Below are positions 5,464 to 53,006 of a stretch of DNA of 64,000 nucleotides, in pieces (the first letter of the stretch is position 1; every line of letters begins with the position of its first letter). Position numbers and translations under genes: made by a program. The notes under the pieces were generated by a model, which saw only the letters and a list, made by a program, of their open reading frames with translations, was not told the origin of the DNA and made no database searches. Source of the stretch: Bacteroidota bacterium. GTDB lineage: Bacteria > Bacteroidota > Bacteroidia > AKYH767-A > OLB10. The stretch is taken from assembly GCA_031366005.1 (NCBI GenBank), contig JANLZB010000094.1:8877-72876 (forward strand), read 5' to 3'.

Positions 5464-6555
5464 TTAAACTGCTTCTGTTTCCACATTTGCTTTAAAAGCA
5501 TTGCGTATAGCCACCTGTTGTGCAACATTACCCGCCACAGCTAAAAAAGCAATAGCTTCAGCAGAGTCTTCATTAGTGACTATTGGGATGCCGCTATCGC
5601 CACCTTCGCATATACTTTGCACCAATGGTATCTGACCTAAGAAGGGTAGGTGAAGTTCTTCAGCCAGGTTTTTACCGCCATCCTTACCAAAAATATAATA
5701 CTTATTGGATGGCAGCTCAGCAGGGGTAAAGTACGCCATGTTTTCAATAATACCGAGCACCTTCACCTTAATAGTATCCATACCAAACATGGCAATGCCT
5801 TTGCGCGCATCAGCCAATGCCACATTTTGAGGAGTGGTAACAATTACAGCACCCGTTAGCGGCACTGCAGCCACCAATGTTAAATGAATATCGCTGGTGC
5901 CGGGTGGCAGATCAATGAATAAATAATCCAGTTCGCCCCAGTCAGCATCAGTAAAAAGCTGTCGTAATGCTTTTGATGCCATCGGTCCTCTCCACACCAC
6001 CGCCTGTGCAGGATCCACGAGGAAACCGATCGAGAGCAGTTTCACACCGTGCTTTTCTATCGGAACCATCAGTTGTCTTCCATCTTTTTCAATGGCAAAC
6101 ATGCGGTCGTTTTCAGCACCAAACATTATAGGCTGCGATGGCCCGAATATATCGGCATCCACTAACCCAACCTTTGCCCCGGTTCTCGCCATCGCCACCG
6201 CAAGATTAGCAGCTACAGTAGATTTACCCACACCGCCTTTACCTGATGCAATGGCAATAATATTTTTAACACCGGGCAGCAAACTCTTTTCACCACCCCG
6301 CTGCGATGTAACATTTGAACTCATATTAACAGTTACCCTTGCCTTCGCATCCACATAATAAGTTATGGCATTGATGCAGGCATTGCGGATCAGCTCCTTT
6401 AAAGGACACGCAGGTGTAGTTAGCATCACAGTAAAGCTTACGTCATTACCGTTTACTTCCACATCGCGTATCATATTTAAAGTAACCAGGTCTTTTTTAA
6501 GATCCGGTTCCTCCACATTTCTTAAAGCATCAATAACTTGTTCTTTGGTAATCAT
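5464..6555 (-). CDS. apbC: Mrp/NBP35 family iron-sulfur cluster carrier ATPase
   Basis: N-terminal DUF59-like domain followed by the deviant Walker A motif SGKGGVGKST. Confidence 0.85.
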   Translation of the reverse strand: MITKEQVIDALRNVEEPDLKKDLVTLNMIRDVEVNGNDVSFTVMLTTPACPLKELIRNACINAITYYVDAKARVTVNMSSNVTSQRGGEKSLLPGVKNIIAIASGKGGVGKSTVAANLAVAMARTGAKVGLVDADIFGPSQPIMFGAENDRMFAIEKDGRQLMVPIEKHGVKLLSIGFLVDPAQAVVWRGPMASKALRQLFTDADWGELDYLFIDLPPGTSDIHLTLVAAVPLTGAVIVTTPQNVALADARKGIAMFGMDTIKVKVLGIIENMAYFTPAELPSNKYYIFGKDGGKNLAEELHLPFLGQIPLVQSICEGGDSGIPIVTNEDSAEAIAFLAVAGNVAQQVAIRNAFKANVETEAV

Positions 6556-6581
6556 GGTGCAAAGTTAGAATATAGTTGATA

Positions 6582-6671
6582 GTGGAGAGTTGACAGTTGA
6601 AAGTAAGAACTTGATGTCAACTTTCCACTCTCCACTGTCAACTCTTCACTGTCAACTGTTAACTCTCCACT
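6582..6671. repeat. inverted-repeat element with arms of CCACTGTCAACT-like repeats, in the apbC / 6703-gene divergent promoter region
   Basis: agtggagagttgacagttga pairs with tccactgtcaactcttcactgtcaactgttaactctccact. Confidence 0.6.
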
Positions 6672-6702
6672 TTGCAAACTGTAAACTACTTTTGCCATCC
6701 GT

Positions 6703-7905
6703 ATGAAAATAGGAATACTGAGAGAAGAAAAAATACCGCACGATAAGCGCGTGCCTTTTACCCCTGAACAATGCAAGCACATGATGGATACTTACCAAGG
6801 CCTTGAGATTGTGGTGCAGCCATCTGATTATCGTTCTTATTCAAATGAGGAATACAAAGCCCAGGGAATTAAACTCTCAGAAGACCTTAGTGATTGTGAT
6901 GTGCTGATGGGTATAAAGGAAGTGCCTAAGGAATATTTAATAGAGGGAAAAAAGTACCTGTTCTTTTCGCACACCATTAAAAAGCAAGTTCACAATAAAA
7001 CCCTGTTGCAGCAAGCCCTGAAAAAAAAGATAACACTTATAGATTATGAATGTCTGACTGATCCTCAGGGCAACCGTGTTATTGGTTTTGGAAGATATGC
7101 TGGTATTGTGGGCGCATATAACGGGATGATGGCATATGGTATGAAATACGGATTATTTAAATTAAAGCCGGCACAATTAAGTCATGATAAAAAAGAATTG
7201 TTTGATGCGCTGGATAATATCAACCTGCCCAATATTAAAATAATTATTACCGGTGGAGGTAGAGTTGCCAATGGCGCCATTGAAACGATGGGTGCATTGC
7301 ACATCCGTAAGGTTACTCCTTATGAGCTTTTGAATTATTCATTTCGCGAGGCAGTGTATGCACAGCTTCATTCGCATGATTATTATGAGCTGAAAGATAA
7401 ATCACCCTGGAGCCAGTATGAGTTTTATCACCATCCCGAAGAAGTGAAGTCAGTTTTTGCTGAGCGAGGTTCTTATTCACAGGTATGTGACCTGCTCATA
7501 CATTGCACTTACTGGGATCCGCGTTCAGCTGTATTATTTACAAAAGCAGAAATGCGTGATCCAGGATTTCATATTAGTGTGATTGCAGATGTTACCTGTG
7601 ACATTAACGGAAGTATTCCTTCCACCACCCGAACTACCAACATTGAAGAAAAGTTTTATGGGTATAATCCAATGACGGAAGCGATAGAAGAACCTTTTGC
7701 ACCCGGATGCATTACAGTGATGGCAATAGATAATTTACCATGTGAGTTGCCACGCGATGCATCAGAAGGTTTTGGCAAGCATTTATATGAAAGAGTGTTG
7801 CCTGCTTTGATGGAAAAAGACAGTGATTTAATTGAAAGAGCAACGATTGTTAAAGATGGTAAGCTCACCGAAAAATTTCAGTATCTGAAGGATTATGTGG
7901 AGTAA
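6703..7905 (+). CDS. saccharopine dehydrogenase (L-lysine-forming, LYS1-like) of the AlaDH/PNT family
   Basis: Aligned by eye to yeast Lys1: ECLTDPQGNRVIGFGRYAGIVGA versus [23 protein letters not shown], and MAIDNLPCELPRDASEGF versus ISIDHLPSLLPREASEFF. Confidence 0.65.
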   Translation: MKIGILREEKIPHDKRVPFTPEQCKHMMDTYQGLEIVVQPSDYRSYSNEEYKAQGIKLSEDLSDCDVLMGIKEVPKEYLIEGKKYLFFSHTIKKQVHNKTLLQQALKKKITLIDYECLTDPQGNRVIGFGRYAGIVGAYNGMMAYGMKYGLFKLKPAQLSHDKKELFDALDNINLPNIKIIITGGGRVANGAIETMGALHIRKVTPYELLNYSFREAVYAQLHSHDYYELKDKSPWSQYEFYHHPEEVKSVFAERGSYSQVCDLLIHCTYWDPRSAVLFTKAEMRDPGFHISVIADVTCDINGSIPSTTRTTNIEEKFYGYNPMTEAIEEPFAPGCITVMAIDNLPCELPRDASEGFGKHLYERVLPALMEKDSDLIERATIVKDGKLTEKFQYLKDYVE

Positions 7906-10492: not shown

Positions 10493-12919
10493 TTAACGTT
10501 TGCGCATAAATAAGCTCCTGACTTTGTCAAAAATGGTTTCGTTTTTATCTTCTTCTTCGTAATAACCATAGCCGTAACTATAACCATAGCCATAACCATA
10601 TCCATAGCTGTAACCATAGCCATATCCATATTTTAATCTTGACATCTCAACTCCATTTAAGATGATGGATAAATTTTTAACCTTATTCTCCGTCATCAGC
10701 TTATTAATTTGAGTGATAAACATTTTACGTGAATAATTAGCACGCAAAATATAAATCGGATAATCAGCTTTCTGAATTATAGGAATTCCATCACTAACAA
10801 TACCTACCGGTGGTGTATCAATAATAATGATTTCATAAATATTTCGCAGGTAATTTAAAAGTGCATCCATGTAAGGACTAATAATTAATTCAGCAGGGTT
10901 AGGAGGGATGGGGCCTGCAGTTATAAAATCAAGATTAGGTAAACCACTTTTGATAATACAATCTTCAGCCTTATCCTTTCCAATAAGCAAAGTACTTATG
11001 CCATGGTTATTCTCCACATTAAATCCTAAATGGATTTTCGGCTTGCGCATATCAAGATCGAGAATAACTACTTTTTTCCCTGAAAAGGCAATTACTCCTG
11101 CAAGATTAATAGCGTTAAAAGTTTTTCCTTCTCCTGAAATTGTAGAAGTAACAGCCATCACTTTAGATCCTGACTCAATAGAAATAAACTGAAGATTAGT
11201 ACGGATGGAACGGAACGCTTCAGAGATTACCGACTTTGGATTTTTGTCAACCAGCAACTGTGATACCGGTATTTCACGTTTATATTTTGGTACAATACCA
11301 AGCAATGCTGCATCAGTATAAAATCCTATTTCTTCAAGCGCATTAATTTCATTGTAAAGTAAATATCTTACGACAATCAATCCGAAACTAAGAAGAAACC
11401 CTAGCATTAAACAAGTAGCAATTATCAGTGACCGGTTTGGTGAAACAGGCGATGATGATTCAAATGCTTCTTCAAGTATGATATGTTGCGGCACATAGCC
11501 AGCCCTGTCAATTGAAAATTCAGCTTTCTTTTCTAACAGTAATGAATAAAATTTTTCATTGATAGAAAACAATCTCTGTAGCCTTGCAAATTCTGCCTGC
11601 TGACCAGGAATTTTTCCAAACCTTTCTTCATAACCGCTTATCCTGCTATACAATTCTTTCTTCTGTGAGGTAAGTTTATCCTGTTCGTTATCCAGTGTTC
11701 TGATCAATATCTCCTTTTGTGAATTGATCATACTGGTGAGGCTTTTATAAACCTCGCTTTCCTGTGTTGCCTGTAATGATACCTGATCACGTTGTTCAGT
11801 TAATTGCTGAAGTTTGGAAAGCTGCTGTTGTATTAAGGAGTTATCTACTTTGCCTGATAAAGTAAGTATTAAGCTTGAGATGTCAGTATTGTGGATTATC
11901 TCTTTGCGTAATTTTTCCAAGAGATTATATTCAAAATCCAAAACGTATGATTGAGTTTGCAGCTCCTGTATTTCGCGATTTACATCTGTAGCTGCAGATG
12001 TTGGATCTAAAATTTTATTGCTTTTTTTAAACTGTTCAATCTGGTTTTCAGAACTGCTGAGATCCATATTGATCTGCATAATAGTATTGTCAATAAAATC
12101 TAAAATTCTATTGGCTACTTCTGCATTTTTTTCTACATCATACTTATTGAATTCAGCCGCTATTCCATTCACAATATCTGCAGCTTTGCGCGAATTTTTA
12201 TCCCTGTATTTAATTGCAATGGTATTGGCTTCCAGGTTTAATGGTAACACATTTAATCCGTTATACACTTCACGTGTCAGCTGTGCATTAGTGGAAAGAA
12301 TAAAGTAATATACATTGTGTTTTATTTCTTTTTGAAGATTATTGATGGAGACATAATCGTTAATGTCAATTTTAAAATCAGCCATGCCAAGCCTTATCCA
12401 ATCCGCTATTTTGTAGCGTTCAACCTTTTTAACATTATTAATGTCAAAATAAGTCAGGGATAGATGACCGGCATCAGGAAAATCAATCAAGAATTTTTTT
12501 CCAAACACAATTGAATCTTTAATAATCGCTTCAACATGAAAGGGTGCTTGTTTATATAGCTCATTTTCCAAAACAGTACCTTTAGCAAAATAGCGTACCT
12601 CAAGAGGTAATTTGGCTATAGCGCGCTCTATAATTACATTAGAACGTATAAGTTCAATATCACCAGCCACTAAATTTTGATTGGCATCAAAGAGTCCTGT
12701 TTTAGAACTACCTAAAATAATATTGGCTTTGTTTTCGGTGGCGAGTTTTATTGTGGTGCTTGCCTCATACACAGGAGCTGTGTAGCGGAGAATAAGCAAA
12801 GCAATAAGAAGTGATACAGTTAAAAAAACAAAAAACCATAGTGCATTTTTGCGCGATATGGTAACAAAAAGCTTAAAATCAAAATCCTCGTTAAGAGGCG
12901 TTATCTTTTTTTTGGGCAT
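10493..12919 (-). CDS. wzc: polysaccharide co-polymerase / BY-kinase (Wzc-like tyrosine autokinase) with an extended GY-repeat tail
   Basis: N-terminal TM and Wzz domains with long coiled coils, then Walker A SGEGKT and the C-terminal tail YGYGYGYSYGYGYGYGYSYGYGYY. Confidence 0.85.
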   Translation of the reverse strand: MPKKKITPLNEDFDFKLFVTISRKNALWFFVFLTVSLLIALLILRYTAPVYEASTTIKLATENKANIILGSSKTGLFDANQNLVAGDIELIRSNVIIERAIAKLPLEVRYFAKGTVLENELYKQAPFHVEAIIKDSIVFGKKFLIDFPDAGHLSLTYFDINNVKKVERYKIADWIRLGMADFKIDINDYVSINNLQKEIKHNVYYFILSTNAQLTREVYNGLNVLPLNLEANTIAIKYRDKNSRKAADIVNGIAAEFNKYDVEKNAEVANRILDFIDNTIMQINMDLSSSENQIEQFKKSNKILDPTSAATDVNREIQELQTQSYVLDFEYNLLEKLRKEIIHNTDISSLILTLSGKVDNSLIQQQLSKLQQLTEQRDQVSLQATQESEVYKSLTSMINSQKEILIRTLDNEQDKLTSQKKELYSRISGYEERFGKIPGQQAEFARLQRLFSINEKFYSLLLEKKAEFSIDRAGYVPQHIILEEAFESSSPVSPNRSLIIATCLMLGFLLSFGLIVVRYLLYNEINALEEIGFYTDAALLGIVPKYKREIPVSQLLVDKNPKSVISEAFRSIRTNLQFISIESGSKVMAVTSTISGEGKTFNAINLAGVIAFSGKKVVILDLDMRKPKIHLGFNVENNHGISTLLIGKDKAEDCIIKSGLPNLDFITAGPIPPNPAELIISPYMDALLNYLRNIYEIIIIDTPPVGIVSDGIPIIQKADYPIYILRANYSRKMFITQINKLMTENKVKNLSIILNGVEMSRLKYGYGYGYSYGYGYGYGYSYGYGYYEEEDKNETIFDKVRSLFMRKR

Positions 12920-31654: not shown

Positions 31655-32047
31655 CTAAAAAAAACGATTTAAAATTTCCGTCAGCATTTGCTCTGTTAAT
31701 GGTTTTGATTCAAATCCACTGAGGGCGGAAATGTGTTTTGCTTTCGCTTTGTCAGCAGGGTTAAGTGAAGTGGTGAGCATGATAATTACAACCTTGGCTT
31801 TTTGAGATAGTGAAAGCTTATCATACTCTGCTAAAAACTCCCAGCCATTCATTTTTGGCATATTGATATCAAGAAAAATTAATTCAGGACATGTGGTTGT
31901 ATTCCTAAGATACTTCAAAGCATCAATACCACTTTCTGCAACCTCTATCTTATGTGCTATTTCAGTTTCTTTTAAGATAATCTGGTGATAATAATTATCA
32001 TCCTCATTATCATCAATCAACATTACACAATTCAATTTCGTTTTCAT
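31655..32047 (-). CDS. response regulator (receiver only)
   Basis: CheY-like sequence MLIDDNEDD…D…K. It overlaps the upstream histidine kinase by 4 nt. Confidence 0.75.
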   Translation of the reverse strand: MKTKLNCVMLIDDNEDDNYYHQIILKETEIAHKIEVAESGIDALKYLRNTTTCPELIFLDINMPKMNGWEFLAEYDKLSLSQKAKVVIIMLTTSLNPADKAKAKHISALSGFESKPLTEQMLTEILNRFF

Positions 32048-33582
32048 GATTCAAAGTTTTTAGGAATACTGAAATAAAATATAGTTCCCTTTCCGGGAGT
32101 TGAATCCACACTTATTTTTCCACCGTGCATTTCAATAATTTTTTTGCAGTGAGCCAGACCAATGCCTGAGCCGGGATATTGCTTTTGTGAATGTAGTTTT
32201 TGGAAAATTGTAAATATTCTATCGTAATATTCAGGTTCAATGCCTATGCCGTTATCTTTTACACTAAACAGCCATTCAATAATTTTATCCTCAGCAGCAA
32301 TGTGAAGAATTAAAGGAATTTCTGGTCTTCTGAATTTAATCGCATTACTTAAAAGATTTTGAAATACAGAATGTAATTCAGGATAACCATTTATTACGGG
32401 AAGAAAATCAGCTTTAACCTCCGCTCCGCTTTGCCTGATTACTGCTGACATATCAGTTAATACTTCGTTTAAGATTCTATTGCAATCAATTTCTGTTCTA
32501 TTGTTGTTATAACCGATTCTTGAATAATCAAGCACATCTTTAATAAGCATTTGCATACGGCCTGTAGCAGCACTTATGGTTGAAAGATATTTGTCAGCAT
32601 TTACATCCAGTTTTCCTTTGTAGTGTCTCTCCAATAATTCAACATAATTAGAAATGGTTCTTAAAGGCTCTTGTAAATCATGAGAAGCGATGTATGCAAA
32701 CTGTCCCAGTTCCTTATTTGAAAGAATTAGTTGTTCCGACATTTGATTGATTGCTGTTGCCACCTGTCCGATTTCATCATGCGAGAAAACAGTTGCACGT
32801 TCTTTTAAATTACCTGCTGCGATTTTTTTTGCTGCTTTATTAATCTCGTTTAATCCCCTGGATATATTCCGGCTTACAGTTATACTCATTATCAAACCTG
32901 AAATTTCAACAGTTAAAGCCACAAGGAATAATATTTTCAGAATAAGATTTTCTAACCATCGTGAACCTTCACCTAAAGTGTAAGAGAAGTTATCTTCCAG
33001 TTTTGTAAGTGCGAAATTGAGAGGGTCTATTTCATCTATAATAGAATCTATCTTTTGCTTAGAAGCTGTTGGCGAATTTATTTCCGAATGTAATTTTTCA
33101 CCAATTGGAAAAAGGTTGGCGATAAGTGAATCACCGGCAGTCCATACAATGATTGCCTTTTTTATATAATAAACATTATGAAATCTTCTTAAAAGATTTA
33201 TCATTCCATCAATATCATTTTCATGTACACGACCTTCTAAAAATCCCTGGCGTGCTATGTTAAGATCAGGATCAGGACGCAGCAGCTCGATACGTGTTTT
33301 ATGATCTCCCATGGGAACCTGCATAAATTTTTGAAATGCAATGTAGTCCGCTTCATTATGGGTACTTGAATATTTTTCTAATTGGTAAACAGCGTCTTTC
33401 TGCGCCTTGCTCCATAAGCCTTCAGCACCTACCAATGCTCTTACAGAAGAGAGTGTGTGAATTGCAAACCAAAGTGTCATTAGTTCCAATGCTATTAACA
33501 CGGCCATTGTACCCACGATGAAATAAAGTTTTTTAGTAATGGAAATGTCTTTCCATCGCCTGATTCGAAAAAAGTATTTCAT
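32044..33582 (-). CDS. sensor histidine kinase (TM, HAMP, HisKA, HATPase_c)
   Basis: H-box ASHDLQEPLR with N, G1 and G2 boxes (GSGIGL). The ORF-track start at 33612 is a TTG, and the first ATG is at 33582. Confidence 0.8.
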   Translation of the reverse strand: MKYFFRIRRWKDISITKKLYFIVGTMAVLIALELMTLWFAIHTLSSVRALVGAEGLWSKAQKDAVYQLEKYSSTHNEADYIAFQKFMQVPMGDHKTRIELLRPDPDLNIARQGFLEGRVHENDIDGMINLLRRFHNVYYIKKAIIVWTAGDSLIANLFPIGEKLHSEINSPTASKQKIDSIIDEIDPLNFALTKLEDNFSYTLGEGSRWLENLILKILFLVALTVEISGLIMSITVSRNISRGLNEINKAAKKIAAGNLKERATVFSHDEIGQVATAINQMSEQLILSNKELGQFAYIASHDLQEPLRTISNYVELLERHYKGKLDVNADKYLSTISAATGRMQMLIKDVLDYSRIGYNNNRTEIDCNRILNEVLTDMSAVIRQSGAEVKADFLPVINGYPELHSVFQNLLSNAIKFRRPEIPLILHIAAEDKIIEWLFSVKDNGIGIEPEYYDRIFTIFQKLHSQKQYPGSGIGLAHCKKIIEMHGGKISVDSTPGKGTIFYFSIPKNFES

Positions 33583-33765
33583 ACTCTTATTCTGTATATC
33601 TTCTCTCTTCAAAAAAAAATAATTGTGAAATCAAAACTAACAAATGAAAAGTGTAAAACAAATATCGCAATAAAATAATATTGGTAAACTGTTAGAGGAA
33701 TTTATTCTGATAGGCGTTTTAATCACAGAATTCTTCACAGCTTATCTGTTAGGATGCGCCTAATT

Positions 33766-34286
33766 TTTAGCCACTAATTTTAAGAATTAACACAAACTCT
33801 TTTTGCCATACACAAATAATTAGTGCCAATTTGTATAATTGATGGCAAGTTGTTTTAGCCACTAATTTCAAGAATTAACACAAATCATTTTCCCATACAC
33901 AAACCAATTAGTGACAATTTGTAGAAATGGTGGCAATCTGTTTTAACCACTATTTTTAAGAATTAACACAAACTCTTTTTGCCATACACAAACCAATTAG
34001 TGCCAATTTGTATAATTGGTGGCAAGATGTATTAGCCACTAATTTCGTATCATAAATCATTTTCCCATACACAAATAATTAGTGCCAATTTGTATAATTG
34101 GTGGCAAGTTGTTTTAGCCGCTAATTCAAGAATTAACACAAACTCATCTTGCCATTCACAAATAATTACTGCCAATTTGTATAATTGGTGGCAATCTGTT
34201 TTAACCACTAATTTCAAGAATTAACACAAACTCTTTTGCCATTCACAAACCAATTAGTGAGAATTTGTGTGATTCGTGGCAAGCTG
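33766..34286. repeat. tandem array of about six copies of an 82-89-bp unit with an internal imperfect palindrome
   Basis: The anchor ccactaattt recurs at 33771, 33859, 33947, 34036, 34118 and 34205. Each unit contains ttgccatacacaaa…tttgtataattggtggcaa. There are no unique spacers. Confidence 0.85.
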
Positions 34287-34407: not shown

Positions 34408-35106
34408 CTAAATCCTGCTTAATAAATTTTCTTTGTAACTGCTTCCGATTGGTAGCTTTTGTTTTTGCAACTCTACCTCGTTGCCTGCAATTGATTTGAT
34501 GGAATCAAGATTGATGATGTAAGATTTATGTATGCGTGCAAACTCATTACCGGGAAGATTTGCTTCAAAAAATTTCATGGTGTGTAAAGTAACAATCATG
34601 CGTTCGCGTGTAAAAATCTTTACGTAATCTTTCATTCCTTCTATGTATTCAATATCAACAAATTTTATTTTGATGAGTTTCTGATCACTTTTCACAAACA
34701 TGTAATCCACCCGTACTGTTGGTTTTTGAGCAGGAGCAACCGGTGCGGTATAACGTTCAATCACTTTATTCACGGCTTTCATAAAACGTTCCATGGAAAT
34801 GGGCTTTACTAAGTAATCCCTTACATCAAGTTCATAACCCTGCACTGCATAATCAGGATAAGCAGTAGTTATAATTACAGCAGGTGCTTTTCGTAATGAG
34901 CGCAAAAAATCTATACCTGAAATAACAGGCATTGATATATCGAGAAACATTAAGTCAACAGGTTCGGTGTGCAACACTTCGAATGCTTCCAGGGCATTTG
35001 AACATTTTTTTAATAGTGTTAATTCGTTAATGTTGTTGATGTAACGTTCGATCACATCTTGTGCCAGTGGCTCATCATCCACAATAATACAGTTGAATTT
35101 ATTCAT
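34408..35106 (-). CDS. LytTR-family two-component response regulator (REC + LytTR DNA-binding domain)
   Basis: N-terminal receiver domain and the C-terminal LytTR pattern (…FARIHKSYIINL…). Confidence 0.85.
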   Translation of the reverse strand: MNKFNCIIVDDEPLAQDVIERYINNINELTLLKKCSNALEAFEVLHTEPVDLMFLDISMPVISGIDFLRSLRKAPAVIITTAYPDYAVQGYELDVRDYLVKPISMERFMKAVNKVIERYTAPVAPAQKPTVRVDYMFVKSDQKLIKIKFVDIEYIEGMKDYVKIFTRERMIVTLHTMKFFEANLPGNEFARIHKSYIINLDSIKSIAGNEVELQKQKLPIGSSYKENLLSRI

Positions 35107-50338: not shown

Positions 50339-51172
50339 ATGACACAACCCTTCACCATATTTAATTTCAACGAAGACGATGTAAAGAAAGTAGCTGCATC
50401 TGTTAATGAGCCGCACAATCATGAGTTTGAAGAATTGATTGTTGGCATAGAAGGAGTGCTGGAACATTTCATTGATTTTAAAACCACAACGCTGGATGCG
50501 CCTTTTGTAAGTTTTGTAACGAAAGGAAAAGTGCATCGTGTAAAACCGGGAATTAAAAACGGTAAATGCAAGATGTGGGTTTTGCGTTTCAAGAGTGAGT
50601 TTATTCCTGAAACCACTTTTCAGTTGTATTCTTATTATCATGATCATGCAAGTCTTAAAATGCAGCAGGGAGATTGTTTCAACCGTCTCGTTACACTTTG
50701 TGAAATGATGTTTAACGAAATGCAACAAACGATACCTGACTATGCAGTAGTGAGACATTTGCTGAGTGCGCTGTTTACGATGATTGAGTCTGAAAGAAAA
50801 AAAGCAGAACCGGATACAAATGATTTTCACAAGACACAGAATACTACTTTTAAAAACTTCTTGAAAATACTGGAAGAAAATTTTCATCGTCCTGAAGGTG
50901 TTGAATATTATGCAGAGAAATTATTTATGTCGGCACGCAATTTGAATTTGATCTGCCAGAATATTTTACAGAAAAGTGTTTCAGAAATTATTGAGACGCG
51001 CAAACTGATTGAGGCAAAAAATCTTTTAATTAATTCAGATAAATCCATTTCTGAAATAGGTTTTGAATTAGGCTTTAACGAGAAAGCTTACTTTACCAAT
51101 GTTTTTAAAAAGAAATCAGGACAAACACCAACTGAGTTTCGCGAAGAAATGAGAAAGCTTGTTTCCAATTAA
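50339..51172 (+). CDS. AraC-family transcriptional regulator
   Basis: Cupin-like N-terminal domain. The C-terminal HTH_AraC region reads LFMSARNLNL…ISEIGFELGFNEKAYFTNVFKKKSGQTPTEFR. Confidence 0.8.
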   Translation: MTQPFTIFNFNEDDVKKVAASVNEPHNHEFEELIVGIEGVLEHFIDFKTTTLDAPFVSFVTKGKVHRVKPGIKNGKCKMWVLRFKSEFIPETTFQLYSYYHDHASLKMQQGDCFNRLVTLCEMMFNEMQQTIPDYAVVRHLLSALFTMIESERKKAEPDTNDFHKTQNTTFKNFLKILEENFHRPEGVEYYAEKLFMSARNLNLICQNILQKSVSEIIETRKLIEAKNLLINSDKSISEIGFELGFNEKAYFTNVFKKKSGQTPTEFREEMRKLVSN

Positions 51173-51189
51173 AGAATATACTTCGGAAG

Positions 51190-52025
51190 TAAAATTTTGA
51201 ACCGCATAGACACAATAGGCACATAGAAAATACCACATAGAAAGTAAGAAAATACTTTAATGAGTTTTAGAAAGCTATGCGAAAACCTATGTTTCTACTT
51301 TGTCTATGTGGTTCAAACATTTTAATTTGGAACCACATAGACACAGTAAGCACATAGAAAATACCACATAGAAAAAATGACAAGAAAATATATTAATGAG
51401 TTTGAGAAAACTATGTGAAAACCTGTGTTTCTATAAACTATGTGGTTCAAACATTTTAATTTGGAACCACATAGACACAATAGGCACACAGCAAATATCA
51501 CATAGAAAAATGATAAGAAAATATTTTAATGAGTTTGAGAAAACTATGTTAAAACCTGTGTTTCTATAAACTATGTGGTTCAAACATTTTAATTTGTAAT
51601 TACATAGACACAGAAAATATCACATAGAAAAATGATAAGAAAATATTTTGATGAGTTTGAGAAAACTATGTGAAAACCTATGTTTCTATGTACTATGTGG
51701 TTCAAACATTTTAATTTGGAACCACATAGACACAATAGGCACACAGAAAATATCACATAGAAAAATGATAAGAAAATATTTTAATGAGTTTGAGAAAACT
51801 ATGTGAAAACCTATGTTTCTACTGTGTCTATGTGGTTCAAACATTTTAATTTGTAAGTACATAGACACAGTAGGGTCATAGAAAATATCACATAGAAAAA
51901 TGATAAGAAAATATTTTAATGAGTTTGAGAAAACTATGTGAAAACCTATGTTTCTATGTACTATGTGGTTCAAAAAACTTTAATTTGTAATTACATAGAC
52001 ACAGTAGGCTCATAGATAAATAATA
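51190..52025. repeat. tandem array of about 6.3 copies of a 122-135-bp unit rich in CACATAG/CTATGTG motifs, each with an 11-bp-stem hairpin
   Basis: The anchor gtggttcaaacattttaatttg recurs at 51308, 51442, 51575, 51697, 51832 and 51965. Each unit has the hairpin ctatgtggttc-N15-gaaccacatag. Confidence 0.85.
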
Positions 52026-52032
52026 TTTAACC

Positions 52033-52449
52033 TTGATACCAACAAAAAAATATTTAAACGAACTAACTTATAAAGTTATTGGTTGTGCTATTGAGGTTCA
52101 TAAATATCTTGGTCCGGGATTATTGGAAAGTGTTTATGAAAAATGCTTTGTTAAAGAATTAGAATTGCGCGGAATTGCTTACAAAAAACAGATTTGGGTT
52201 CCGTTGGAATACAAAGGTCTCGAACTTGATACTGAATTACGATTAGACGTATTGGTTGAAGATATACTTTGTGTCGAATTGAAAGCACAGGAATGGCTTT
52301 TACCCATTCACGAAGCAACCTTACTTTCCTACATGCAAATGTTGCAAAAACCTAAGGGAATTCTTATTAACTTTCATTGTGTTAATATTTTTAAAGAAGG
52401 ACAAAGAACTTTTGTAAATGCATTATTCTCTTCACTTCCTGAAGAATAA
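52033..52449 (+). CDS. GxxExxY family protein (PD-(D/E)xK-like)
   Basis: Motif VIGCAIEVHKYLGPGLLESVYEKC, i.e. G..E..Y. Length is 138 aa with a TTG start. The gene is embedded in and followed by copies of the CACATAG repeat. Confidence 0.65.
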   Translation: MIPTKKYLNELTYKVIGCAIEVHKYLGPGLLESVYEKCFVKELELRGIAYKKQIWVPLEYKGLELDTELRLDVLVEDILCVELKAQEWLLPIHEATLLSYMQMLQKPKGILINFHCVNIFKEGQRTFVNALFSSLPEE

Positions 52450-52469
52450 TAATTTGTGAAATACGGGTA

Positions 52470-52580
52470 AGTGGATCAATATTTTTCACCACATAGAACA
52501 TAGAAAACATAGAAAATTTACATAGTAAAAAATCTATGTGAACATCTATGTTCCTATTGTGCCTATGTGGTTCAATAATC
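52470..52580. repeat. degenerate additional copy of the CACATAG repeat unit downstream of the GxxExxY gene
   Basis: caccacatagaacatagaaaacatagaaaatttacatag…ctatgtgaacatctatgttcctattgtgcctatgtggttc. Confidence 0.6.
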
Positions 52581-52588
52581 AGGACAAA

Positions 52589-52668
52589 CGATGTATCGGT
52601 TTCTTAATATCACAACACTTTTTCCGAATACTATTACCGTTTCCATTTAATCAGGTGCATCTTTGTAC
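52589..52668 (+). promoter_or_regulatory. conserved 80-bp upstream block (copy 1): direct TTCCGAAT/TTACCGTT repeats plus a CATCTTTG -7-like box
   Basis: It aligns with 55968-56040: cgatgt…aatatcacaacac…ccgaa.actattaccg…gcacatctttgtac. Confidence 0.55.
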
Positions 52669-52701
52669 CCTAAAATTTTAACCTATAATAAAAAATCAAA
52701 A

Positions 52702-53006
52702 ATGAACACATCCACAACATTTAAAACATTAGCAACAGCATTAGTTGTTGCAGCACTGGCAACTTTTTTAAGTTGTAGTAACAAAGGAGAAAACAATTCC
52801 AACAAGCAAAGCGGAGATGGAAACCTGAGTTTTGTCAACATTCAGGAAGATGCCGGACACAATTGCCTGCGGTGTTCGATTATAAAACGAAACATTGGAT
52901 CAATCCGAATGGTGCAACATCAGAAAACATAATTGAACAGGTTAAGAAATGCCCGAGTGATGCACTATCATTTTTTTATAACAATCAAAAAAATACAATT
53001 CAATAA
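52702..53006 (+). pseudogene. small lipoprotein-signal ORF fused by an apparent frameshift to a (4Fe-4S)-binding-type domain (WKPEFCQHSGRC…LPAVFD…CPSDALS)
   Basis: Frame 0 (52702-52932) encodes MNTSTTFKTLATALVVAALATFLSC… The next frame, open from 52782, encodes RRWKPEFCQHSGRCRTQLPAVFDYKTKHWINPNGATSENIIEQVKKCPSDALSF and has no start codon of its own. Confidence 0.4.

Follow-up and report, generated by a model that had tools for sequence, protein, structure and literature searches.

Palindromic elements of Bacteroidota that hold a predicted GxxExxY nuclease gene in their loop, and a tandem array of their gene-less copies

REPIN-RAYT systems pair REP doublets with REP-associated tyrosine transposases (PMC3116915, PMC3337134), the REP hairpin being defined by a GTAG or CGTC tag (PMC3733652). 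The elements described here resemble them in that a gene is flanked by palindromic repeats that are also scattered without the gene in intergenic DNA, genomes contain tens of copies without target-site duplication, vertical inheritance has kept copies at orthologous sites for long periods, local clusters and tandem groups are formed (compare BIMEs, which are clusters of REP sequences), and repeat sequence and protein clade vary together. They differ in that the enzyme is a predicted 138-aa PD-(D/E)XK nuclease (PF13366) and not an HUH/Y1 (IS200/IS605-type) transposase, each arm strings together about four 7-nt motifs where REPs have a single 20-40-bp hairpin with a GTAG/CGTC tag, the ORF lies exactly in the loop of a single palindrome, and they are elements of Bacteroidota, variant forms of which extend to Gemmatimonadota and other phyla. 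They also resemble MITEs: they are short, non-coding and dispersed in multiple copies, and a longer gene-bearing element shares their terminal inverted repeats; unlike MITEs, they lack a target-site duplication, the encoded protein is outside the known transposase families, and copies look old and stable instead of recently transposed.

Other known repeats share part of this layout. In 23S rRNA, intervening sequences of the Leptospira type carry an ORF for a four-helix-bundle protein ("S23p") between inverted repeats, and genomes of the kinds that encode GxxExxY proteins also encode many paralogues of S23p (PF05635). Here too a small ORF (about 120-140 aa) sits tightly between inverted repeats that could form a long stem, but the protein belongs to PF13366 and not PF05635, the location is not in rRNA, and we know of no dispersed gene-less derivatives of 23S rRNA intervening sequences. 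Correia elements (Neisseria), ERIC and BOX are palindromic intergenic elements of 100-150 bp, present in many copies, that can alter transcript processing; insertion of Correia elements duplicates a TA target, and no gene is known to be associated with them. Our elements are likewise palindromic, intergenic, multi-copy and of similar length, but to our knowledge neither heptamer-repeat arms nor a nuclease ORF inside the element occur in Correia, ERIC or BOX. An iteron array consists of direct repeats of 17-22 bp at one locus, beside a rep gene and an AT-rich unwinding region. Plasmid and phage iterons share with our elements short repeated motifs at sub-helical-turn to helical-turn spacing, whereas the motifs here are 7 nt long, are arranged in inverted arms and lie at many chromosomal sites. 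In the literature on PDDEXK, on REPIN/RAYT in Bacteroidetes and on intervening-sequence proteins we did not find this architecture described, and the results below suggest that the elements form an apparently undescribed selfish family.

We analysed the window, that is, the whole 64-kb stretch of DNA. Using Tandem Repeats Finder, we detected an array at 51193-52022 (period 133, 6.3 copies, 87% matches, score 1170) with a second, higher-order period of 255 bp, which confirmed the original prediction of about 6.3 head-to-tail copies between an AraC gene and a GxxExxY gene. The array takes up the 860 bp from the AraC stop (51172) to the GxxExxY gene start (52033), with unit lengths of 131, 134, 133, 122, 135 and 134 bp and a last partial unit of 51 bp. 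From this search and a unit alignment we delimited six tandem gene-less copies without assigned strand (51193..51981): u1 at 51193-51323, u2 at 51324-51457, u3 at 51458-51590, u4 at 51591-51712, u5 at 51713-51847 and u6 at 51848-51981. A CRISPR array consists of short repeats alternating with unique spacers, with cas genes nearby; here the whole 133-bp unit repeats with no spacers, in keeping with the prediction that this is not CRISPR, and no Cas family match was obtained among the neighbouring genes scanned.

The unit boundaries set by the original prediction had to be moved: the element is a palindrome with termini TTGAACC…GGTTCAA. Each array unit is an imperfect palindrome TTGAACCACATAG…CTATGTGGTTCAA followed by a spacer of about 11 bp (ACATTTTAATT), and has about four (C)ACATAG motifs per arm. 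Exact motifs number about three direct and two inverted per unit (about 4 + 4 with degenerate copies), and they are spaced within the arms by 8, 8-9 and 12-14 bp and not by the one helical turn that had been proposed. We counted 29 CACATAG copies in the window, a number reached in none of 100 shuffles (expectation 5.5 +/- 2.4), and 24 of the 29 fall within 51220-52569. Folded as single-stranded DNA, unit 5 gave -24.2 kcal/mol (z = -6.5). The 11-bp deletion reported for a 122-bp unit is real and lies in u4, where the alignment has an 11-column gap and one motif copy is gone. The perfect 11-bp hairpin (ctatgtggttc…gaaccacatag) that had been attributed to every unit is present, but at only three of the six unit junctions (51304/51330, 51438/51464 and 51693/51719); it is the junction of two neighbouring palindromes and not the core of a unit.

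The further copy that was predicted after the GxxExxY gene is also real. It is a separate short gene-less copy of about 95 bp (52483..52577, no strand assigned), delimited by repeat search, folding and its orthologues in a syntenic relative (L235, about 91% nucleotide identity), with 4 + 3 exact ACATAG/CTATGT motifs and a DNA fold of -18.1 kcal/mol (z = -6.0). Its right end forms a 31-nt inverted repeat, at 90%, with the first array arm (51197-51227). In this region eight members of a single palindromic element family lie clustered. The window has no other cluster of these palindromes, which counts against the explanation that we favour below. An 88-bp array at 33765-34286 has neither inverted repeats nor matches among the fetched loci and is unrelated.

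The gene between the array and the downstream copy (52033..52449, + strand, TTG start) encodes a protein of 138 aa. Its assignment as a GxxExxY, PD-(D/E)xK-like gene was borne out by profile matches to PF13366 (PDDEXK_3; E = 3.6e-35, 121.3 bits against a cut-off of 22) and TIGR04256 (123.8 bits against a cut-off of 35). The protein has the motif G29-x-x-E32-x-x-Y35 and the catalytic triad D72…E82-x-K84 of the PD-(D/E)XK superfamily, whose restriction-endonuclease-like alpha/beta fold it shares; G29, E32, Y35, D72, E82 and K84 are invariant in 10 sequences with 30-86% identity to it. Judged from the invariant D72, E82 and K84 and from the fold, the predicted nuclease is intact. The family is very large, with at least 8,000 scored matches in each of both searches. 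Its function is given as "Unknown" in a survey of PD-(D/E)XK proteins (PMC3424549), and we found no literature mentioning GxxExxY by name on the biology of the family.

The gene has arms of its own. By the unit alignment and by comparison with the canonical arm given below, the stretch 51982..52032 (+ strand), counted by Tandem Repeats Finder as the last 0.3 copy, is a degenerate left arm (GTAATTACATAG-ACACAGTAG-GCTCATAG…) that has lost the innermost motif copy. A decayed right arm (TTTGTGAAATAC…GTGGATCAA), which had been overlooked, lies between the stop codon and the downstream copy (52450..52482, + strand) and was recognised by comparison with L235 and the canonical arm. The window's gene-bearing copy has the most decayed arms of all, yet its gene is still under selection, a combination not readily expected of a nuclease that depends on its own arms.

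For the homologues, we searched for arm termini within 160 bp of the ORF at 77 loci whose proteins are 59-90% identical. The left terminus was present in 63 of 77 loci (82%) and the right in 67 (87%), with control rates per 160 bp of 2.7% and 2.2% respectively; 56 loci had both, which supports the predicted selfish scaffold with an embedded nuclease-like gene. The canonical left arm (GAACCACATAG-AATCATAG-GCACATAG-ATTAACACATAG-gtaATG, in the 63 loci) stops 2-5 bp 5' of the start codon, and the canonical right arm (CTATGTGAAnnC-CTATGTAT-CTATGTGC-CTATGTGGTTCAA, in the 67 loci) begins a few bp 3' of the stop codon. Since the arms hug the ORF in most homologues against a background of about 2.5%, the gene lies in the loop of the palindrome. 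Conversely, 48 of 50 arm pairs set 250-2500 bp apart enclosed a GxxExxY ORF, and no other cargo was seen between the arms of these 50 pairs. A complete element thus measures about 500 bp and comprises a left arm of about 42-45 bp (TT-GAACCACATAG, then three further (C)ACATAG copies at 8, 8-9 and 12-14 bp), the 138-aa GxxExxY ORF and the inverted right arm. The 95-135-bp units of the window are both arms without the gene, that is, MITE- or REPIN-like forms. Their loop aligns to ORF nt 11-33 with a marginal score (p about 0.01-0.13); it may keep the first 30 or so nucleotides of the ORF, for which this alignment is only suggestive.

To follow the gene-less form in other genomes, we used the pattern GAACCACATAG-N70-100-CTATGTGGTTC; the counts given for it are lower bounds. 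The pattern matched more than 119 stretches in about 45 Bacteroidota MAGs of at least five classes (groups including Chitinophagaceae, Bacteroidales, Cyclobacteriaceae/Cytophagales, Saprospiraceae and Chryseobacterium), where by our own estimate about 2 matches would be expected by chance. The gene-less palindromes are intergenic, measure 85-135 bp and have the termini TTGAACCACATAG/CTATGTGGTTCAA; a gene-bearing form with the same ends exists, whose protein is the predicted nuclease and no recognised transposase. Among the matches listed, the most loci per MAG was 12; one MAG (P.bin.40) had at least 12 gene-less loci against one gene-bearing copy. Outside the selected sites, stringent clusters occurred at roughly 0.01-0.05 per kb. 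All five GxxExxY ORFs found in the 119 pattern-selected loci had an ACATAG cluster less than 200 bp away. The unit is therefore common and dispersed, as had been considered for a REP or MITE without ties to this gene, but it is strongly associated with the GxxExxY family.

This dispersal bears on the suggestion in the original prediction that CACATAG motifs form an operator or iteron array, to be bound by the adjacent AraC-family regulator or a replication initiator. A regulator gene does have many short motifs, direct and inverted, beside it, but more than 119 unrelated intergenic sites carry the element without an AraC or rep gene nearby, and the orthologous AraC gene in L235 adjoins a single copy; because of these two results we rejected the reading. 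Around the array there is moreover no rep gene, DnaA-box cluster or plasmid context. Sigma-70-type promoter-like matches were at chance level (12 vs 9.6 +/- 3.9, with a promoter model that does not cover Bacteroidota-type promoters), and the flank logo had no strong TAnnTTTG, the Bacteroidota-type promoter motif. We regard this explanation as effectively refuted.

We then looked for traces of mobility. Across 120 copies, direct flank matches showed no excess at offsets 0-6 and lengths 2-8, so there is no target-site duplication and the classical cut-and-paste signature is absent. Copies stay at orthologous sites though their flanks have diverged to 77-97% identity, and no pair of empty and filled orthologous sites was present among about 1.4 Mb of fetched loci. 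Two size differences considered as insertions (L145/L186 and L131/L146) were traced to unrelated additional sequence or to one more, degenerate copy, and were not clean insertions. The palindrome pattern had no match in 2.9 million viral contigs, and a phage vector for the element was accordingly discarded.

Such stability, the lack of a target-site duplication, the decayed arms of the window's gene-bearing copy and the mosaic array units, which fit unequal crossing-over, would all agree with the palindromes being inert: remnants of a once-active element, or gene-converted copies, with the nuclease as cargo or domesticated and the array as a neutral minisatellite grown by slippage. We consider this quite improbable, given how the arms are conserved. 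At eight orthologous loci, identity was 93% in the left arm and 85% in the right against 79% and 71% in the flanks, and within the ORF 80% at third codon positions and 96% at positions 1+2; codons of the window and L235 differ by 23 synonymous and 7 nonsynonymous changes. These alignments indicate purifying selection on both arms and on the protein. The arms are thus conserved above flanks and above synonymous sites, exact 11-mers at both ends are kept at more than 119 sites across several classes, and the arm motif follows protein divergence, all of which speaks against inert relics.

Selection on the arms could also act on RNA. The arms would then pair in the transcript around the ORF, forming a long stem that is cut (e.g. 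by RNase III) or that insulates or stabilises the cassette mRNA within host operons, much as in the 23S rRNA intervening sequences that carry an ORF; the gene-less copies would serve to process or stabilise RNA, and the nuclease would do something else. The arms abut start and stop codons exactly, the unit folds stably (the z-score of unit 5 given above), cassettes are co-oriented within operons (radA-X-FAD, ade-X-manC, fabD-X-fabG, DUF1501-X-AP_endonuc), and neighbouring genes are co-oriented in 73-78%. From the gene-less copies the median distance to gene 3' ends is 50 bp, compared with 130 bp to 5' ends, and their contexts are convergent in 23 cases and divergent in 12. However, arms of the same element paired no better (-39.0 kcal/mol) than chimeric arms (-40.9 kcal/mol); there is no compensatory co-variation between arms, and it is the heptamer itself that is conserved across classes. 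On this chimera test we rejected pairing selection on a structured RNA or DNA. That arm sequence is conserved and pairing is not points to recognition by a protein. In a search of Rfam 15, the whole window matched two tRNAs only; all matches in 51100-52700 were far below the gathering score, and by E-value no known RNA family was found there either. An intrinsic terminator, a GC-rich hairpin with a T run after it, was rejected as well: on both strands the hairpin here follows TT and precedes AA, the opposite arrangement, and the array has no terminator-like site. A role in RNA would furthermore leave the spread of tens of copies to unrelated sites unexplained, and we judge it unlikely.

To compare arms with protein divergence, we inspected more distant relatives. 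Relatives at 59-81% protein identity have one-base variants of the motif (CACAATAG, CACAGTAG or CACATAAG), and relatives at 33-45% identity keep similar arms built of variant motifs: TTCACCACAGAG-GACGCAGAG…/…CTCTGTGGTGAA in Bacteroides finegoldii, CACAGAG in Bernardetia and CACAAAG at one further locus (L207). In Gemmatirosa, GAACCGCAGAG-GACGCAGAG-GGCCGCAGAG palindromes flank the gene on both sides. Variant arm motifs of distant GxxExxY genes thus include CACAGAG, CGCAGAG and CACAAAG, and on these comparisons the arm motif drifts along with the protein. Arms were absent at phage-borne GxxExxY relatives, and for other phyla the evidence for arms comprises about ten loci. Tentatively, and with some doubt, we extend the reading to GxxExxY proteins at large, which would be dedicated nucleases of a class of palindromic elements across several phyla, each clade recognising its own motif. 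Each arm would be a row of 3-4 short motifs with the consensus GAACC-[AG]CA[GT]AG…, and each clade would maintain or mobilise its own cassette and tens of gene-less copies. If true, this would give REPIN/RAYT a second counterpart, one that does not depend on HUH enzymes; since there is no target duplication, its substrate may be a hairpin or cruciform.

For the elements of the window we favour, at slightly better than even confidence, a REPIN/RAYT-like or MITE-like selfish system in which a PD-(D/E)XK nuclease would mobilise the repeats. The GxxExxY nuclease would recognise the repeated heptamers with several protomers per arm, fold or pair both arms and cut at the TT|GAACC termini. Its own cassette and, in trans, the gene-less copies would be maintained or mobilised without target-site duplication, one gene serving many repeats as RAYT serves REPINs. 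A nuclease acting on the arms would add a new enzyme class to the few bacterial systems in which one gene serves many short repeats. The abundant and widely distributed GxxExxY/PF13366 family gains a concrete candidate substrate, its own arms, given that the gene lies inside a conserved palindrome, gene-less copies are dispersed, and arms and protein co-evolve. In practical terms, the elements come to lie between the genes of housekeeping operons (fabD-fabG, radA and others), make arrays of variable copy number and break short-read assemblies.

Under this selfish-system reading the array most likely arose as a side effect. The gene-bearing copy and the adjacent gene-less copy have left arms that would form direct repeats 133 bp apart, and units would be added by unequal recombination or replication slippage between left arms, in part two at a time (255 bp). 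The first 200 loci included none syntenic with the window; the only syntenic locus, L235, was reached via protein P0002. It has one copy upstream and two downstream of the gene, against six and one in the window, which upholds the predicted ongoing turnover. The gap between AraC and the GxxExxY gene is 214 bp, with one copy, in L235 and in two independent Logan assemblies, and this copy has the loop sequence of the array units. The one-copy strain also occurs in sibling runs (L238, SRR20217184). With one upstream copy in the relative against six in the window, the array is a lineage-specific amplification, and the comparison shows that it arose from a single upstream gene-less copy that is still single in the relative.

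Over-expansion or a mis-join of the source contig could also give six copies where the relative's assemblies have one. Short-read assemblies do break here: an independent short-read contig (L001, from SRR20217206) is 100% identical through the AraC end and for 143 bp into the array, where it stops, as expected at a repeat. The units, however, differ from each other by 5-30% and include the 11-bp deletion and the 255-bp pattern, which collapse or duplication errors do not yield, and the relative is about 9% different throughout and therefore a different lineage and not the same DNA. We hold an assembly artefact to be very improbable. Tandem arrays were present at five other loci, and three of these five adjoin a GxxExxY gene.

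We delimited the array to 51193-52022 with Tandem Repeats Finder (period 133, 6.3 copies, 87% matches, score 1170), which also found a 255-bp higher-order period. Cutting it at a conserved AATTTG anchor yielded six units of 131, 134, 133, 122, 135 and 134 bp and a final 51-bp partial unit reaching up to the GxxExxY ORF (52033-52449; PF13366, E = 3.6e-35; TIGR04256 “GxxExxY protein”, 123.8 bits for a cut-off of 35). An AraC-family regulator gene lies upstream of the array and an extra element copy (52483-52577) downstream of the ORF. The window contains 29 CACATAG motifs for 5.5 +/- 2.4 expected, 24 of them inside 51220-52569. Repeat finder, motif counts and profile matches thus bear out the original prediction of a CACATAG-rich array followed by a GxxExxY gene and a further copy, and the 11-bp deletion reported in one unit is real, the 122-bp unit having lost one motif copy. 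The motifs, said to lie about one helical turn apart, are in fact spaced by 8, 8-9 and 12-14 bp in the arms. A perfect 11-bp hairpin attributed to each unit was found at three of six junctions and is the junction where two neighbouring elements meet across an 11-bp spacer. A palindrome repeated in tandem is symmetric about two different centres. Where the array ends, and in the lone downstream copy, the true element can be recognised as TTGAACCACATAG … CTATGTGGTTCAA, with about four (C)ACATAG copies per arm and a short loop between the arms. As single-stranded DNA, unit 5 folds at -24.2 kcal/mol (z = -6.5).

We then scanned 185,579 species genomes for the pattern GAACCACATAG-N70-100-CTATGTGGTTC, yielding at least 119 stretches with at least 122 elements, for about 2 chance matches expected by our own estimate. 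The matches listed come from at least about 45 MAGs of Chitinophagaceae, Bacteroidales, Cyclobacteriaceae/Cytophagales, Saprospiraceae and Chryseobacterium, with up to 12 loci in one MAG. Among them, gene-less copies measure 85-122 bp and have a common plan: GAACCACATAG-GCACATAG-AAACATAG-nnnnCACATAG, then a loop, then the mirror image of that arm. Their conserved termini reach out to TT…AA(A). Listed copies are intergenic (58 tandem, 23 convergent and 12 divergent gene pairs), at a median distance of 50 bp from gene 3' ends and 130 bp from 5' ends. No target-site duplication was detected at gene-less copies for any tested offset and length, and the palindrome pattern had no match in 2.9 million viral contigs.

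Smaller palindromes are nested in some of the listed elements. A GC-rich mini-hairpin of about 22 nt, ACTTGTCCCGCC-AAAG-GCGGGG, was found in 9 of 122 gene-less elements (L015, L029, L044, L047, L058, L074, L099, L114 and L119), always splitting a CACATAG heptamer (CACA|insert|ATAG), with the heptamer hit within the arm varying by locus. It looks like another layer of mobile elements, very small hairpins whose site specificity is for the motif itself, and recalls cyanobacterial small dispersed repeats. Two other GC-rich palindromes are nested in these AT-rich elements: TCCCGATAGCTATCGGGA in 10 of 122 (L037, L040, L042, L048, L052, L071, L091, L094, L101 and L103) and CCTGCCTGCCGGCAGGCAGG in 6 of 122 (L002, L060, L079, L088, L090 and L113).

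In the reverse direction, we scanned metagenomes with the window protein and retrieved 80 loci encoding homologues 59-90% identical, of which 77 had a placeable ORF. Requiring the terminal 11-mer with at most 2 mismatches within 160 bp of the ORF, we found the left one upstream in 63, the right one downstream in 67 and both in 56 of these 77 loci; control DNA over 1 kb away gave 2.7% (left) and 2.2% (right) per 160 bp (P below 1e-80). The search across genomes proposed in the original prediction thus showed a dispersed unit and a firm tie from gene to arms, but only 5 of the 119 pattern-selected loci, among the matches listed, held a GxxExxY ORF, each less than 200 bp from an ACATAG cluster. 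The ORF sits in the loop of the palindrome, with constant geometry upstream (…TTTT-GAACCACATAG-AATCATAG-GCACATAG-ATTAACACATAG-gta-ATG) and downstream (TAA-aaa-CTATGTGAAnnC-CTATGTAT-CTATGTGC-CTATGTGGTTC-AA). Of the 50 arm pairs separated by 250-2500 bp in the full set of fetched loci, 48 have a GxxExxY ORF between them; the remaining two are tandem arrays. Among the alternatives first offered, a selfish-element scaffold with an embedded nuclease-like gene was the right one, given the arms that bracket the ORF.

On a 4.6-Mb contig (L239), the space separating a DUF1501 gene from a gene of the AP-endonuclease family is taken up almost exactly by the cassette of about 500 bp. Cassettes in Sphingomonas (L203), B. 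finegoldii (L201), Bernardetia (L202) and L239 lie between housekeeping genes of the same orientation, only 3-60 bp away from these neighbours, and operon contexts (X, cassette) include fabD-X-fabG, radA-X-FAD protein, ade-X-mannose-1-P guanylyltransferase and DUF1501-X-AP endonuclease. Such contexts fit the main rival explanation, an RNA-level module in which the arms would enclose the cassette in a stem that is processed within operon transcripts; the dispersal of the element and the lack of co-variation between arms speak against it. Arms of the same element pair at -39.0 kcal/mol versus -40.9 kcal/mol for chimeras of different elements; since native arms pair no better, it is the repeated motif that is conserved and not a co-varying stem, which points to recognition by a protein. 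Mean pairwise identity over eight orthologous metagenome loci was 93% in the left arm and 85% in the right arm, versus 79% in the upstream and 71% in the downstream flank, and in the ORF 96% at codon positions 1+2 versus 80% at position 3.

Arms and protein are thus both conserved, and they also vary together. Relatives 59-81% identical carry the one-base motif variants CACAATAG, CACAGTAG and CACATAAG, and analogous arms accompany homologues 33-45% identical (annotated plasmid or chromid records) in a small cross-phylum sample of about a dozen loci. In this sample, Bacteroides finegoldii has TTCACCACAGAG-GACGCAGAG-GACACGGAG / CTCTGTGAC-CTCTGTGTC-CTCTGTGGTGAA, Bernardetia has CACAGAG arms, and in Gemmatirosa kalamazoonensis gene-less palindromes (GAACCGCAGAG-GACGCAGAG-GGCCGCAGAG…CTCTGCGGTTC) flank a frameshifted gene on both sides; the Sphingomonas homologue has a left arm only and that of Treponema one 11-bp inverted repeat. 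Distant relatives on viral-collection contigs show CACAAAG (L207) or CGCAGAT arms (L208), or 20-48-nt AT-rich inverted repeats (L209, L220, L224), visibly short-motif repeats in the latter two; no arms were found around clearly phage-borne GxxExxY relatives. Different heptamer rows (ATCCGTG/CACGGAT type) adjoin ACATAG arms downstream (L128) or upstream (L175) of the gene, and ACACGGATTCG flanks the Treponema homologue; there may be several motif families that occur side by side in clusters. At 1400-2000 of a Prevotella nigrescens locus (L204), ACAAATC-ACAAATC-ACAAATAG and a block of about 40 nt lie upstream of the GxxExxY gene and recur, as direct and not inverted repeats, ahead of the small hypothetical ORF that follows, which suggests tandem cassettes with different cargo.

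To trace the array, we compared the window with L235, a MAG contig (GCA_031363705.1) encoding a 96% identical protein (P0002) and syntenic for Lon, DUF1569, AraC, GxxExxY and a luciferase-like monooxygenase, the common genes being about 91% identical in nucleotides. Copy number, which the original prediction proposed to compare, does vary: the AraC and GxxExxY genes are 214 bp apart in L235 and in two independent Logan assemblies, with one gene-less copy between them, versus six upstream units in the window. The array was therefore amplified from a single copy that already existed, whose loop matches that of the window units. Downstream of the gene, L235 has two copies and a fragment versus one copy in the window. 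The left arms of u4, u6 and u7 (the unit after u6) are unlike those of u2, u3 and u5, so that unit variants form a mosaic, and a block of two units is found again with 95% identity; the two features are typical of unequal exchange between directly repeated left arms. Other arrays are rare and short (five loci, 1.9-3.4 copies), and a GxxExxY gene adjoins three of the five. Codon differences between the window gene and that of L235 are synonymous in 23 cases and nonsynonymous in 7, so the gene is still under purifying selection, despite which the arms of its own gene-bearing copy have decayed. L001 (SRR20217206) belongs to the six-copy lineage, its contig breaking inside the array, and L238 (SRR20217184) is a one-copy relative; from these neighbouring run accessions, both variants may coexist in one study's samples. 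Unit loops (window 51760-51798 and equivalents; …ATGATAAGAAAATATTTTAATGAGTT…) align to nt 11-33 of the ORF (codons KKYLNE) with a marginal score against shuffles (p about 0.01-0.13); if true, array units would be internal-deletion derivatives. Between cassette and monooxygenase, L235 carries a 196-aa SnoaL-like gene (6171-6761), of which the window (52663-53006) retains the first ~35 codons (signal-peptide-like); after these the sequence is unrelated and contains two short ORFs, and the region is about 470 bp shorter than in L235.

These loci establish a palindromic element family in gene-bearing and gene-less forms, with variable local copy number. The nuclease would bind the heptamers and act at the termini, and might maintain or mobilise copies in trans. 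Mobilisation has weak points: no empty orthologous site was found among the fetched loci, no target duplication was seen, copies are long-lived at orthologous sites, and the structural similarity is generic. These features bring the system nearer to REPIN/RAYT than to classical MITE biology. Its components are not the HUH enzyme and tagged REP hairpin that define RAYTs, and we therefore describe it as working like REPIN/RAYT, not as a member. This partnership of a nuclease and a palindromic repeat family appears to be widely distributed and undescribed.

A second tandem array in the window (33765-34286; 88-bp unit, 6.0 copies, 84% matches) is unrelated to the palindromic element: it contains no inverted repeats of at least 12 nt and matched none of the fetched loci. 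It lies between minus-strand genes for a histidine kinase (32044-33612) and a LytTR response regulator (34408-35106). The window also holds two tRNA genes (Rfam RF00005; 603-686 and 778-861) and short tandem arrays with units of 21 bp and of 6/12/18 bp (ATAACC) (6615-6687; 10562-10630).
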